A stretch of DNA of 64,000 nucleotides from sequence record NZ_CP102531.1, one strand, 5' to 3'. Below, piece after piece: positions 22,216 to 46,536 of the stretch. The DNA comes from a plasmid. The position numbers and the translations under genes are program-made. The notes beneath the pieces were generated by a model, which saw nothing but the letters and a program-made list of their open reading frames with translations, made no database searches and was not told the DNA's origin. The first letter of the stretch is position 1. Each line of letters opens with the position of its first letter.

Positions 22216-23033
22216 GGTTCTGGTGCAAATTTTCCTCGCTGACTTGATTTTAGTATACTGGGTGCCAAGAAACGAGGGATTGCGCGCATGAATCACTTTA
22301 AGGGACGCCACTTTCAAAAGGACATCATCTTAGTAGCCGTTGGCTACTATTTCAGATTCAGTCTCAGCTATCGTGACATCGTTGAATTGCTTCGGGATCG
22401 GGGTATCACTGTTCATCACACCACGGTCATGCGTTGGGTTCATCACTATGGCCCCATCTTTAAGGCTCTATGGCGTCGGCATCAAACAGCTCACGCTAAA
22501 AGTTGGCGAATCGATGAGACCTATATTCGAGTTAAAGGCCGTTGGGCCTATTTGTATCGCGCTATTGACAGTAACGGTTTGACCATGGATTTTGAGCTAC
22601 GAAAACACCGCGATTATACCGCATCCTATCACTTTTTGAAGCGTCTCTTGACGACCAATGGTCGGCCTGATCGATTAGTCACTGATCAATATCGGGCAAC
22701 ACTGAAAGCAGTGAAGCACCTGATAAAGCAAGACTATTTGAGCAAATCAGCCCACCAATGTTCCAAATATCGAAATAATTTGATTGAACAGGACCACCGA
22801 TTCATTAAACGTCATCGTGTCCGCTCAGCAAGCTTTCAAAGCATTCGAACCGCTAGTGCAACGTTGAGCGGTGTGGAAATTGTTCACGCAATACGCAAAA
22901 GAACCCGACGAGAGTTAAGTCTCATCGGGTTCTCAGTCGTGGACGAATTAGAAGCATTGTTAGCTGCTTAACCTTTAACATAGTATCAATAGCTGGGTAG
23001 ATGTCCATCTCTTAGACTGTTTGCACCAGATCC
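22216..23033 (+). mobile_element. IS6-family insertion sequence, copy 2
   Basis: Same terminal inverted repeats and protein-identical transposase as copy 1; inverted relative to copies 1 and 3. Confidence 0.85.
22288..22971 (+). CDS. tnp: IS6-family transposase (227 aa)
   Basis: Protein-identical to the 1691-2374 product. Confidence 0.9.
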   Translation: MNHFKGRHFQKDIILVAVGYYFRFSLSYRDIVELLRDRGITVHHTTVMRWVHHYGPIFKALWRRHQTAHAKSWRIDETYIRVKGRWAYLYRAIDSNGLTMDFELRKHRDYTASYHFLKRLLTTNGRPDRLVTDQYRATLKAVKHLIKQDYLSKSAHQCSKYRNNLIEQDHRFIKRHRVRSASFQSIRTASATLSGVEIVHAIRKRTRRELSLIGFSVVDELEALLAA

Positions 23034-23045
23034 TTGTGAAGTAGT

Positions 23046-23786
23046 ATGGCAACCACAGCAGAAATATTGCAACAAGTGGCGGCAGGGCAATTAAGTCCGA
23101 CGGTGGCTGCCCAACAGTTAGAAGCAGGCAAAACAGCGGCATTAGGTTTTGCCAATGTCGATTTAGATCGTCAACGCCGCAATGGCTTTCCTGAGGTCAT
23201 CTACGGTGCTGGTAAGACGGCAACCCAAATTGTGGGTATCGTGCAAGCCTTGTCCCAACAGACGTTGCCGATTTTAACGACCCGGTTATCCGCAGAAAAA
23301 TTCGCGGCACTCCAACCGGCGTTACCAACGGCTGTCTATCATGCCACTGCGCAGTGTATGACGGTCGGAGAACAACCGGCACCGAAAACACCAGGGTACA
23401 TTGCCGTGGTGACGGCGGGGACCTCCGATCAACCGGTCGCTGAAGAAGCAGCAGTAACCGCGGAAACTTTTGGCAATCATGTTGAACGGGTCTATGACGT
23501 GGGTGTTGCAGGAATCCACCGACTGTTTGCCAAGTTGGATGTGATTCGTGGTGCCCGGGTGGTCATTGTGATCGCGGGCATGGAAGGTGCGCTGGCCAGT
23601 GTCGTTGGTGGACTAGTTGATAAGCCCGTGATTGCAGTGCCGACCAGCGTTGGTTATGGTACTAGTTTTCAAGGTATGACCGCGCTATTGACCATGCTCA
23701 ATAGCTGTGCGTCGGGGATTACCGTTGTCAACATTGATAACGGCTTTGGTGCCGCCTACTCAGCTAGTATGATCAATCAAATGTAA
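23046..23786 (+). CDS. larB: LarB, PurE-like carboxylase/hydrolase of nickel-pincer nucleotide cofactor biosynthesis (246 aa)
   Basis: PurE-like C-terminal half [34 protein letters not shown]; followed by larC, larD, larE. Confidence 0.8.
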
Positions 23787-23816
23787 GATTCAGTTAACTG
23801 AACAAGGAGAAGATAA

Positions 23817-25079
23817 ATGCAAACACTTTATTTAGACGCTTTTTCGGGGATTAGCGGTGATATGTTTCTGGGCGCGTTACTCGATTTAGGACTTGATTTT
23901 GAGCAATTAAAAACCGAATTGGCTAAGTTACACGTGCACGGTTATGAATTAACGCAGCAACGGGAAGCCCAGAGTAGCATCTATGGCACGAGCTTTGATG
24001 TTCAGGTTGCGGGTGGTAAGGACCATGGTTTTGTGGAACATCACCATCATCAGCATGAAGCTGGGCATCATCATGATCATGAAGCGCGTCATTTAGCTGA
24101 TATTGAGGCGTTAATTGACGGCAGTGACTTATCAGATACCGTGAAACACCACGCGAAAGCGATCTTTATGGAAATTGCGCAAGCGGAAGCAGCGGTTCAT
24201 CACATGCCACTAGCTGAAGTTCATTTCCATGAAGTGGGCGCGTTGGATTCGATTGTTGATATTGTGGGCTGCTGTATTGGGTTGGAATTGATGCAGATTG
24301 ATACCATCATGGCTTCACCGTTAAGTGATGGTAGTGGTTTTATTAACGTTGCCCATGGTCAGATGCCAGTTCCCGTCCCAGCCGTGATGCAGATGCGAGT
24401 TGGTAGTGCCATTCCGATTCAACAACGGTTGGATGTGCATACTGAATTGATTACCCCCACTGGGATGGGCTTGGTCAAGACGCTCGTACGTGAATTCGGA
24501 CCGTTACCGGAAAATGCCGTGCCAACTAAAGTTGGTTATGGGTTTGGTAAACGGGACACGGGCGGTTTCAATGCACTGCGAGCCGTATTATTCGAAAAAA
24601 AAAAACTAAGTCAGCAAATCGTTAACCGGACGGCTGATGCTGTCTTAATGATTGAAGCTAATCTAGATGATCAGACGGGTGAAGGACTGGGGTACGTGAT
24701 GAACCAGTTATTAACGGCGGGCGCATACGATGTGTTCTTCACGCCCATTCAGATGAAGAAAGATCGGCCGGCGACAAAGTTAACGGTTTTGGGAAACGTT
24801 AACGATAAGGACTTACTGACTAAGTTGATTTTACAAGAAACGACGACGATTGGTGTACGTTACCAGACGTGGCAACGTACTATTATGCAACGGCACTTCC
24901 TGACGGTCGCAACGCCGTACGGTGACGTTCAAGTTAAAGTGGCGACATATCAAGATATTGAGAAGAAGATGCCGGAATATGCGGATTGTGCCCAGCTGGC
25001 GCAGCAATTTCATATTCCGTTTAGAACGGTCTACCAGGCAGCCTTAGTGGCGGTAGATCAATTAGATGAGGAGGCGTAA
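23817..25079 (+). CDS. larC: LarC, CTP-dependent nickel insertase (DUF111), full-length 420 aa
   Basis: N-terminal MQTLYLDAFSGISGDMFLGALLDLG typical of the LarC/DUF111 family; His-rich stretch HHHHQHEAGHHHDHEARH. Confidence 0.8.
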   Translation: MQTLYLDAFSGISGDMFLGALLDLGLDFEQLKTELAKLHVHGYELTQQREAQSSIYGTSFDVQVAGGKDHGFVEHHHHQHEAGHHHDHEARHLADIEALIDGSDLSDTVKHHAKAIFMEIAQAEAAVHHMPLAEVHFHEVGALDSIVDIVGCCIGLELMQIDTIMASPLSDGSGFINVAHGQMPVPVPAVMQMRVGSAIPIQQRLDVHTELITPTGMGLVKTLVREFGPLPENAVPTKVGYGFGKRDTGGFNALRAVLFEKKKLSQQIVNRTADAVLMIEANLDDQTGEGLGYVMNQLLTAGAYDVFFTPIQMKKDRPATKLTVLGNVNDKDLLTKLILQETTTIGVRYQTWQRTIMQRHFLTVATPYGDVQVKVATYQDIEKKMPEYADCAQLAQQFHIPFRTVYQAALVAVDQLDEEA

Positions 25080-45394: not shown

Positions 45395-45402
45395 GAACCT
45401 GT

Positions 45403-45873
45403 CTAGCATCTTTTAAGAACTATGTTCAAGAAGGCCAATACAACCATTTGAAGACTGCTGTTAAGGGCACGTTCACAGTTTTTCCAAAGTCGCCGACATT
45501 TGTCTAGCCAACTCCATGAACGTTCAACGATCCATCGTTGCGGTAACACCGTGAACATATGCAACTCGTTGCGTTTAGCTACCGTCGTCTTAGCATTCAA
45601 AATGAGCTTCACCTGATCCGCAAAGTCATTGCCAGTGTAGCCACCATCAACCATGACATGCTGAACCAGCTCTAAATTTTGGCTAGCCAAACTAAGCATA
45701 GCCAATGCACCTGAACGATCTGATACATTAGCTCGTGTCACGAGAATGGCTTGTGGTAAACCGTTAATATCAACCGCCATATGACGCTTAATCTCTGAAA
45801 TCTTTTTGCCGCCATCGTAGCCACTATTTTTCGTTAAATCAGTGGTTTTAACACTTTGAGCATCAATAATCAC
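45403..45873 (-). CDS. IS5-family transposase OrfB
   Basis: Homologous to the other copies. Confidence 0.8.
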
Positions 45874-46190
45874 AAACGACGTTCGGGCCGATCGGCCCTG
45901 TGCAAAACGATAGGAAGCGACAGTTTTTTTAAAAGCCTTTCTAATAGCGAATCAGCTGTCGGGTCTGGTTTATCTCGCCACATATCGTAATAGCGGTAGA
46001 CAGTGTGCCATTCTGGGAAATCGTGCGGTAATTCACGCCATTGACACCCTGTAGTAAGCGAGTAAAGGATGGCATTGAATACGTCATAAAGATCATAACG
46101 ACGCGGTCTTGTATGCTTGCGGAAGTTTTCTAAATCAGGTTGTATTAACGCAAATTGCGCTCGAGAAATATTGCTTGGATAATCTGGCAT
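45870..46190 (-). CDS. IS5-family transposase OrfA
   Basis: Homologous to the other copies. Confidence 0.8.
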
Positions 46191-46251
46191 GACAAACTCC
46201 TCAGTCGGTTTTCCACAATTCTACCAGATTCAGCAGATACTAGACAGGTTC

Positions 46252-46536
46252 TTAAAGAGTTGCTTTCAATTGATCTAATCGCCATTGGCACCATGAAATA
46301 AAGGCTAATTCGTCAATCTTTGGAATGCCATAGGTTCTAGCATACGTTAACTTTTGAGTGGTAAGTAGTTGATCATAGGGTTTGCTAATAATACCAACCA
46401 CAAGGATATCGACATTTTTGTCAATCCCGTTGACAGGTTTTGCTCCTAGAATAGTTGCTAACTGTTGTGCCTGGAAACGACGAAAAGATCGCAAACGGCC
46501 GGTAAAGAGAATTCGTTTGCCCCTTAAATCTATCAT
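46252..46536 (-). CDS. standalone BRCT-domain protein (94 aa), probably a C-terminally truncated gene whose stop codon is supplied by the IS end
   Basis: LigA-type BRCT signature RILFTGRL...LATILGAKPVNGIDKNVDILVVG...GIPKIDELAF; stop codon TAA shares its first base with the IS terminal nucleotide at 46252. Confidence 0.45.
   Translation of the reverse strand: MIDLRGKRILFTGRLRSFRRFQAQQLATILGAKPVNGIDKNVDILVVGIISKPYDQLLTTQKLTYARTYGIPKIDELAFISWCQWRLDQLKATL

Follow-up and report, generated by a model that had tools for sequence, protein, structure and literature searches.

The plasmid sequence NZ_CP102531.1 raises the question of whether a single block of 24 kb can constitute one transferable package for growth in milk and cheese. 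The analysis covered a stretch of 64,000 nucleotides of this record, here called the window, which has a G+C content of about 44-46%. The arc at positions 22216-46252 of the window contains genes for lactose use (lacTEGF), for turning methionine into cysteine (cysK-ctl-cysE), and for the lactate racemase cofactor and a lactate channel (larBCDE), as well as a type I restriction-modification system and a nuclease. The initial annotation had proposed that these gene sets, each flanked by insertion sequence (IS) elements, lie next to a conjugation system and can be transferred together in one event. All five gene sets were found within the 24 kb, with full-length family matches above the cutoffs. 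The proposal is supported in part: the arc is carried by a transmissible-looking plasmid and comprises two milk-relevant and three unrelated modules, one of the latter a remnant, which are held together and taken apart by IS elements.

In the explanation that we favor, to which as a whole we assign a probability of about 0.85, the plasmid belongs to the pBD-II/pW56/pACT/pYAK/pLC2W family of the Lacticaseibacillus paracasei BL23/Shirota-like lineage and has a RepA_N-type replicon, PrgP-like partition genes, and a MOBP relaxase accompanied by type IV secretion genes of the Gram-positive kind. The arc would be a mosaic of four IS-bounded segments: IS6-larBCDE-IS6, the nuclease with a small open reading frame (ORF), IS5-hsdSMR-cysK-ctl-cysE-IS5, and IS5-lacFGET-IS5. 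Each segment would have come from other lactic acid bacteria and been joined to the plasmid through the activity of IS6 and IS5 and through recombination between IS copies, and the same copies would now drive rapid loss and inversion of modules. The lacTEGF operon is predicted to import and cleave lactose and N-acetyllactosamine, and cysK-ctl-cysE to convert methionine to cysteine, both of which would be useful in milk. The type I system would serve the defense of the plasmid or host, and the nuclease is a predicted extracellular DNase. The explanation is built on direct observations of gene identities, IS boundaries, plasmid location, near-identity across species, and differences between sister plasmids module by module.

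The framework of the mosaic is provided by the following IS copies:

Positions 1629-2446, minus strand: IS6 copy A, 818 bp, oriented like copy C (direct)
Positions 22216-23033, plus strand: IS6 copy B, 818 bp
Positions 26930-27747, minus strand: IS6 copy C, inverted relative to copy B
Positions 29023-29879, minus strand: IS5 copy c1, 857 bp, with two overlapping ORFs
Positions 38787-39643, plus strand: IS5 copy c2, left arm of IS5-lac-IS5
Positions 45395-46251, minus strand: IS5 copy c3, right arm of IS5-lac-IS5, inverted relative to c2

The five copies inside the arc (two IS6 of 818 bp and three IS5 of 857 bp) make up 17.5% of its 24 kb. The arc begins with the left end of an IS6 copy at 22216 and closes with the outer end of an IS5 copy at 46251. 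The cargo lies between paired copies of one IS: the lar genes between IS6 copies B and C, the restriction system and the cys cluster between IS5 copies c1 and c2, and the lac operon between IS5 copies c2 and c3. Not every module has IS flanks of its own, because hsdR and cysK have no IS between them and the restriction system occupies a single IS5-bounded segment together with the cys cluster. All three IS6 copies are identical to each other, and among the three IS5 copies the likeness is approximately 98%. No 8-bp target duplications were found at the IS6 copies or around the IS6-lar-IS6 unit formed by copies B and C. Identity of IS6 copies without target duplications is the expected trace of repeated cointegration or recombination of the IS6 type. 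The horizontal mobility of the modules is apparent from near-identical copies of lac, cys, and lar in the DNA of other species.

The relatives of the plasmid were identified by a megablast search of the window against PLSDB, followed by direct pairwise comparison with the sister plasmids. In the search, the whole window matched the plasmid family of L. paracasei BD-II, W56, LcA (pACT), and LC2W with 98-100% identity. The direct comparison revealed long colinear blocks with circular pBD-II, pACT, and pLC2W at 99.4-100% nucleotide identity, and the database searches gave the same picture for pW56. In window coordinates, the colinear spans are 1-40914 for pACT, 2441-39362 for pBD-II, and 26927-46692 for pLC2W. 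Each junction inside the arc is independently supported by at least one sister plasmid, which rules out a chimeric assembly, as does colinearity with independent closed plasmids. The shared near-identical backbone covers the transfer region, the partition genes, a Y-family polymerase, and an adhesin. The ends of the window map to positions 54923 and 52127 of pBD-II, about 2.8 kb apart and on either side of repA, which starts at 52128, one base after the second map point. This end mapping indicates that the window is the whole circle minus about 2.8 kb that includes repA. The circle would thus measure an estimated 66.8 kb, assuming no extra insertion in the uncovered segment of about 2.8 kb. 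The classical lactose plasmid pLY101, reportedly mapped at about 68 kb, would agree with this size. The initiator of the pBD-II family is assigned by MOB-suite to the RepA_N-type rep_cluster_850. Near-identity and colinearity with pBD-II, pLC2W, pACT, and pW56 thus settle the replicon type as plasmid.

The family has been described and compared previously (PMC3918159, PMC6200037); pLZ64 has been mentioned in passing as a Lac plasmid (PMC3668208), and pLY101 as the plasmid of L. casei Shirota (PMC6048169). The sister plasmids pBD-II, pW56, pACT/pYAK, and pLC2W, from L. paracasei (formerly 'L. casei') strains BD-II, W56, LcA/LcY, and LC2W, have the backbone, transfer region, lar remnant, nuclease, restriction system, cys cluster, and IS junctions as in the window. 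However, the window alone combines an intact lacTEGF, which is absent from pBD-II and pW56 and a remnant in pACT, with the transfer region and lar genes, which are absent from pLC2W.

The differences among the sisters follow the IS copies. Plasmid pLC2W corresponds to the window minus 2447-26926, the segment between the direct IS6 copies A and C, so that the transfer region and lar genes are gone. Plasmid pBD-II matches the window except that 39363-45677 is missing, its junction falling within the two inverted IS5 copies, and pACT is without 40915-44724. The lac remnant of pACT ('remnant of lactose PTS', phosphotransferase system) and the deletion in pLC2W were noted by Douillard et al. (PMC3918159). 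The host strains of pBD-II, pLC2W, and pACT are near-clonal (PMC6200037), and the differing content of their plasmids indicates that modules are gained or lost singly and quickly. The sister differences are probably losses rather than gains. The notion of one 'full package' does not agree with these breakpoints at IS copies, which leave sister plasmids without lac, or without the transfer region and lar.

The two modules with milk-relevant functions are the lac operon and the cys cluster. The lac unit contains the following features:

Near positions 39700-40020: end fragment of IS1165 (ISL3 family), 99-100% identical to many L. plantarum and Pediococcus plasmids
Positions 40170-40505, minus strand: lacF, EIIA (TIGR00823)
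Positions 40554-41978, minus strand: lacG, phospho-beta-galactosidase (TIGR01233)
Positions 42005-43822, minus strand: lacE, EIICB (TIGR00394 and TIGR00853)
Positions 43859-44779, minus strand: lacT, antiterminator (NF041678)
Positions 45084-45416, plus strand: fragment of a family-2 glycosyltransferase, its first 110 aa, cut by IS5 copy c3; a scar of an earlier context

The lac genes are intact, in the order lacT-lacE-lacG-lacF, and match their profiles above cutoff with full coverage. The operon is 100% identical to that of pLC2W. It has a promoter-like site at 44901-44874 and a terminator-like hairpin at 39973-39947. Both the lac and the cys operon retain promoter-like and terminator-like signals, and both are probably expressed. 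The function of lacTEGF has been established in BL23, where it was argued also to serve the use of N-acetyllactosamine in the infant gut; its product galactose-6-phosphate requires the tagatose pathway (PMC5940811). No tagatose-6-phosphate pathway genes and no proteinase or peptide-transporter gene were seen in the window. BL23 is a plasmid-free close relative that uses lacTEGF (PMC3918159 Table 1; PMC5940811). The plasmid copy may therefore be a redundant second copy in the BL23-like lineage, which would explain why its loss is tolerated.

The lac operon travels with its IS5 arms. The 7.47-kb unit at 38787-46251 recurs with the same outer ends and 99.0-99.5% identity, in different surroundings, in six other plasmids: pGu1301 (L. 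rhamnosus, human gut), pLSEI1 (ATCC 334), pFAM18149.21, p1CACC566, pEG9B, and pLC1, of which only the right end was checked. In L. rhamnosus plasmids, the identity of the lac unit is 99.2-99.5%, with 99.25% in pGu1301. A search for 3-bp duplications around IS5-lac-IS5 gave TNA as the flank on either side, with an agreeing middle base in five of six plasmid contexts, a pattern indistinguishable from target preference. In pFAM18149.21 and pEG9B the flanking sequences are on swapped sides, as is expected from inversion between inverted IS5 arms.

The cys cluster lies upstream of the left IS5 arm of the lac unit:

Positions 36050-36961, plus strand: cysK, cysteine synthase family
Positions 36983-38167, plus strand: ctl, cystathionine lyase/synthase family
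Positions 38109-38690, plus strand: cysE, serine acetyltransferase family

A promoter-like site is located upstream of cysK at 35732-35760. An Rfam search for a leader or riboswitch upstream of cysK or lacT gave no match; the sole match in the window is an rli28-like RNA outside the arc. The cluster is 100% identical over 2881 bp to those of pLC2W, pBD-II, pW56, and pACT. In the strains LC2W, BD-II, W56, and LcA it was classed as cysK2-ctl1-cysE2 by Wuthrich et al., who tied it by gene-trait matching to growth on methionine as the only source of sulfur (PMC6200037). The same study described the cluster as plasmid-borne, mobile, and required for growth on methionine, reported its strong induction without cysteine in related strains, and called the plasmid 'rather unstable' (PMC6200037). 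The unit at 35392-38787 is 99.2% identical in L. helveticus DSM 20075 and 98.7% identical in a Streptococcus metagenome-assembled genome (MAG), so that our own scan confirms at the sequence level the published horizontal transfer of the cys unit. For the Ctl protein, identity reaches 100% in L. helveticus DSM 20075. Across Lentilactobacillus species Ctl has graded protein identity of 97-89% on large chromosomal scaffolds, which hints at Lentilactobacillus as the source genus of the cysK2-type cluster.

The remaining three modules have no such connection to milk. The lar genes are arranged as follows:

Positions 23046-23786, plus strand: larB (NF033503)
Positions 23817-25079, plus strand: larC (TIGR00299 and NF052512)
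Positions 25066-25800, plus strand: larD, lactate channel (NCBIfam match)
Positions 25825-26655, plus strand: larE (TIGR00268)

The initial annotation of larBCDE as cofactor and channel genes holds for all four genes, with larB, larC, and larE matching equivalogs for the synthesis of the nickel-pincer cofactor above cutoff, but larA, larR, and larMQO are missing. LarA, LarR, LarM, LarQ, and LarO were absent from the window in a tblastn search that used LarA from pFAM18149.23 as a query and in which the LarB control matched. On pFAM18149.23, the whole locus (larO, larQ, cbiM/larM, the Crp/Fnr regulator larR, and larA-larE) lies between IS6 copies, and the 3.9-kb lar segment of the window matches part of that unit with 100% identity. 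The downstream IS6 junction is the same in both plasmids. In contrast to the full locus of pFAM18149.23 and L. plantarum, an IS6 copy in the window replaces everything upstream of larB, including larA, larR, and the nickel transporter genes. The lar genes are 99% identical in L. plantarum plasmids, and lar sequences occur on only seven plasmid records of PLSDB. The larBCDE genes appear to be a decapitated remnant of the lactate racemase operon. The module could not racemise lactate alone because it lacks the racemase and the nickel transporter, and no dairy role for it is evident.

The right end of IS6 copy B lies within the last codons of larA, and larB starts 12 nt after it (23033-23046, ATG start). 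The nuclease gene likewise starts 17 nt after another IS6 end (27747-27765). The two genes are without native upstream regions and would rely on read-through or on outward IS6 promoters. A run of 11 A at 24585-24595 gives larC a single 420-aa ORF, as in pFAM18149.23, whereas with the run of 10 A in pBD-II the gene is divided into larC1 and larC2, the form annotated in L. plantarum plasmids. The difference may be a homopolymer sequencing difference or reflect a lost need for frameshifting.

The nuclease and the restriction-modification system occupy the center of the arc:

Positions 27765-28658, plus strand: nuclease of 297 aa (Endonuclea_NS_2, Pfam PF13930)
Positions 28655-29023, plus strand: ORF of 122 aa with a weak helix-turn-helix match
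Positions 29886-30512, minus strand: hsdS, 208 aa (PADLOC Specificity_I)
Positions 30509-32125, minus strand: hsdM (TIGR00497, above cutoff)
Positions 32139-35306, minus strand: hsdR (TIGR00348, above cutoff)

The nuclease is homologous to the streptococcal proteins streptodornase D and Spd1 (PDB 5fgw, E=1.9e-19). Its N-terminus has a lipoprotein-type signal peptide (...AISISGC). The initial annotation had called the nuclease secreted; judged from the N-terminal sequence and the general lipobox rule, the enzyme is probably membrane-tethered and not freely secreted.

HsdR, HsdM, and HsdS are all present as intact ORFs according to NCBIfam, Pfam, and PADLOC. HsdS has one target-recognition domain and aligns to exactly one half of the specificity-subunit profiles of about 410 aa (PADLOC). 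The hsdS stop codon lies 6 nt before the IS5 end. Truncation of the gene by this adjacent IS5 was considered and rejected, because the protein has the same natural end (...LQKMFC before the stop) as the 190-aa HsdS of pLC1, which has no neighboring IS. The N- and C-termini are conserved between the two proteins, whereas the target-recognition domain in the middle differs (39% identity). HsdS is thus a specificity (S) subunit of naturally half size. If it behaves like engineered half-subunits, it would work as a dimer at a symmetric target. The restriction system is about 96% identical in L. plantarum and Paucilactobacillus plasmids, and it is linked to the cys cluster in pLC1, p1CACC566, and the Streptococcus MAG. 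In the MAG, the contig carries the cys cluster together with a 95.8% identical piece of hsdR. The restriction system is defense or plasmid-addiction equipment, not niche cargo; it and the nuclease have general functions that are not dairy-specific.

The plasmid looks transmissible by virtue of its transfer region, which abuts the arc on the left:

Positions 3221-21751, minus strand: transfer region of 18.5 kb, recognized by Pfam and NCBIfam matches and hydrophobic segments

Its ORFs are intact and tightly packed. They encode a DUF3991/Toprim protein, a MobA/VirD2-type MOBP relaxase (PF03432), a NikA/MobC accessory protein, an ArdC-like protein, an 825-aa cell-wall hydrolase with CHAP, M23, and glucosaminidase domains, a VirB4 ATPase (CD1110 family, 1043 bits), PrgI, a VirD4 coupling protein (CD1115 family), PcfB, and an Ig-like surface protein. 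Both the VirD4-like NF045973 and the VirB4-like NF045971 equivalogs score above cutoff. Of the VirB1-, VirB3-, VirB6-, and VirB8-like parts, the CHAP/M23 hydrolase and PrgI were matched, and the other remaining ORFs are without a family match. By topology only, two proteins are candidates for the mating channel, one of 283 aa with four hydrophobic segments and one of 174 aa with a single segment. The 'complete conjugation system' of the initial annotation is thus reasonable by gene content, with relaxase, VirD4, and VirB4 in place and with candidates for other channel parts. The region is 100% identical to that of pBD-II, and MOB-suite types pBD-II (MPF_T) and pACT as conjugative. The transfer backbone also occurs in an L. 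rhamnosus plasmid with 96.7% identity. The favored explanation takes the transfer genes to be functional. No conjugation experiment for the pBD-II/pW56/pACT/pLC2W family was found in the literature searched.

Several points weigh against the mosaic explanation. The repA gene itself is outside the window, just past position 64000. The direction of change among the sister plasmids is read from an unrooted comparison. The lac junction of pBD-II, a head-to-head, palindromic IS5 chimera, may be an artefact of short-read assembly, and so may the gap in pACT, which lies at the record ends. The claims about function and transfer would, for this particular sequence, derive from comparison with related sequences.

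In the alternative that survives best, the five modules are selected together as a package for dairy adaptation, and one conjugation event transfers them as a whole. All modules are on one replicon beside a full-looking transfer region, and the restriction system is joined to the cys cluster elsewhere as well. A complete or nearly complete lac unit is present on 16 of the 27 cys-bearing plasmid records of PLSDB, and lac and cys are adjacent even where the cys version is a different one. In pGu1301, the lac unit is positioned just downstream of cysE of another cys lineage (76% identity). Plasmids of the pGu1301 type (L. rhamnosus, L. paracasei) and pLCAKO.2 (IBB3423) have cysK-ctl-cysE followed by IS5-lacFGET-IS5 in the same order and orientation as the window; pGu1301 differs in its cysK3-like cys lineage (76% nucleotide identity) and its backbone, and has no restriction system and no lar. 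The joint presence of cys genes and lacTEGF on pLCAKO.2 has been reported (PMC6717177). This recurrent linkage is the best support for the package idea, for lac and cys only. Published milk-relevant functions exist for these two modules (PMC5940811, PMC6200037), and the 'milk/cheese-adaptation package' is sound to that extent; the remaining three of the five modules are a rarely found lar remnant without racemase, regulator, and nickel transporter, and two general systems. The package is also at odds with the independent loss of modules in near-clonal strains, with the use of lacTEGF by BL23 without a plasmid, and with the lack of a transfer experiment in the literature searched. Nor do the sources of lac plasmids single out dairy environments. 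In a raw tally, uncorrected for sampling or phylogeny, of 29 records with at least 96% of the lac query, the sources were distributed as follows:

Dairy (cheese, koumiss, kefir, fermented milk, starter): 10 records
Human (blood, gut, mouth, vagina, breast milk): 12 records
Animal, meat, or probiotic product: 3 records
No source given: 4 records

In this tally, human and dairy sources are about equally frequent, and lac plasmids are not dairy-restricted. A package that is co-selected and transferred as a unit is unlikely.

It could also be argued that the arc is neutral, mostly decaying DNA delivered by IS elements, most of it without a current selective role. The truncated lar operon, the glycosyltransferase fragment, the IS1165 fragment, fragments of IS3, and the share of IS sequence in the arc fit such an origin, as do the lac remnant in pACT and the absence of lac from pBD-II and pW56 (PMC3918159; for pBD-II also by direct comparison). 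However, the ORFs of lacTEGF, cysK-ctl-cysE, hsdRMS, the nuclease, and larBCDE are all intact and match their profiles over the whole length, and lac and cys keep their own promoter-like and terminator-like signals. The induction of the cys cluster in related strains and its match to a growth trait (PMC6200037) likewise speak against neutrality, and we regard wholesale decay as quite improbable.

Two further possibilities, for which a single joint estimate was made, together appear equally doubtful. The orphan larBCDE genes might not be a dead remnant but be kept to supply the nickel-pincer cofactor to a chromosomal enzyme of the LarA family. IS5-lacFGET-IS5 might be an active composite transposon that has repeatedly landed downstream of cysE in two unrelated cys lineages; if true, the implication would be that a physically linked lactose-plus-sulfur 'supermodule' is selected for in plasmids of Lacticaseibacillus. 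Finally, a chromosomal genomic island or vertically inherited integrative conjugative element, favored by nothing except that the window itself is without a replication initiator gene, is scarcely credible in view of the 99.4-100% colinearity with three closed circular plasmids (and with pW56 in database searches), the window ends that flank repA on pBD-II, the PrgP-like partition genes, and a layout that is explicable without an integrase or attachment-site structure.

The mosaic explanation remains the preferred one, and it describes a finding that is real but ordinary, since publications already cover the plasmid family, the mobility of the cys cluster, and the presence of lacTEGF on plasmids. 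The family was compared in 2013, the mobility and function of the cys cluster were reported in 2018, and plasmid lacTEGF with cys genes in 2019-2020; lacTEGF and cys genes on L. paracasei plasmids are described in PMC8190607 and PMC6717177. It is also a published general notion that niche traits reside on plasmids in lactic acid bacteria (PMC3918159, PMC6200037, PMC8190607, PMC6717177). The curiosities that are left are minor: lac is linked to cys in more than one cys lineage, the cofactor genes are orphans, and HsdS is half-size. The value of the window is that it is the most complete member of the family and displays what its sisters lost and at which IS copies. Such information bears on the stability of strains and on the safety dossiers of commercial L. 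paracasei. The plasmid is also a good substrate for a first experimental test of the function of the transfer genes.

The backbone outside the arc contains additional features:

Positions 46252-47192, minus strand: BRCT-domain protein and serine recombinase (resolvase), backbone genes adjoining the cargo arc
Positions 62392-63610, minus strand: partition genes, a PrgP-like ParA (278 aa) and a 129-aa partner

The block had been described as lying next to a conjugation system and partition genes. The transfer genes do abut it, but the partition genes are 16 kb from its right end. ParA matches the NCBIfam PrgP model below the curated cutoff (170 vs 400 bits), and its orthologue in pBD-II is annotated by RefSeq as a ParA family protein. 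The gene at 50089-57954 (minus strand) encodes a 2621-aa surface protein resembling SpaA/isopeptide pilins, with 14 tandem repeats of 282 nt (94 aa). This adhesin gene has eleven more repeats in the window than in pBD-II or pLC2W, where the shorter form may reflect a true contraction or repeats that collapsed in older assemblies of short reads. The rli28 match of Rfam at 2783-2968 (minus strand; 69 bits, above the gathering score) overlaps the position of a 'putative holin-like toxin' of pBD-II. The site lies beside IS6 copy A and probably holds a stability locus of the type I toxin-antitoxin kind. At 59660-59761, beside ISL1 (IS3 family), 102 nt of the IS5 left end (98% identical) form an IS5 scar outside the arc.

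The plasmid can be compared with known systems at two distances. The 64.5-kb pLC1 of L. rhamnosus Lc705 carries the same hsdRMS with a half-size hsdS, a cysK2-type cluster (99.9%), and an IS5-bounded lacTEGF (99.5%). However, it belongs to another species and has a different arrangement, an extra fructose/mannose phosphotransferase system, GH38, and a GH2 beta-galactosidase; it has no lar and is typed as mobilizable, not conjugative. The lactose/proteinase plasmids of Lactococcus lactis likewise carry IS-bounded dairy-relevant modules on large, often transmissible plasmids. They combine the lac operon with tagatose pathway genes and often with prtP and opp, whereas the plasmid analyzed here has of these genes only lacTEGF and no proteolytic ones.

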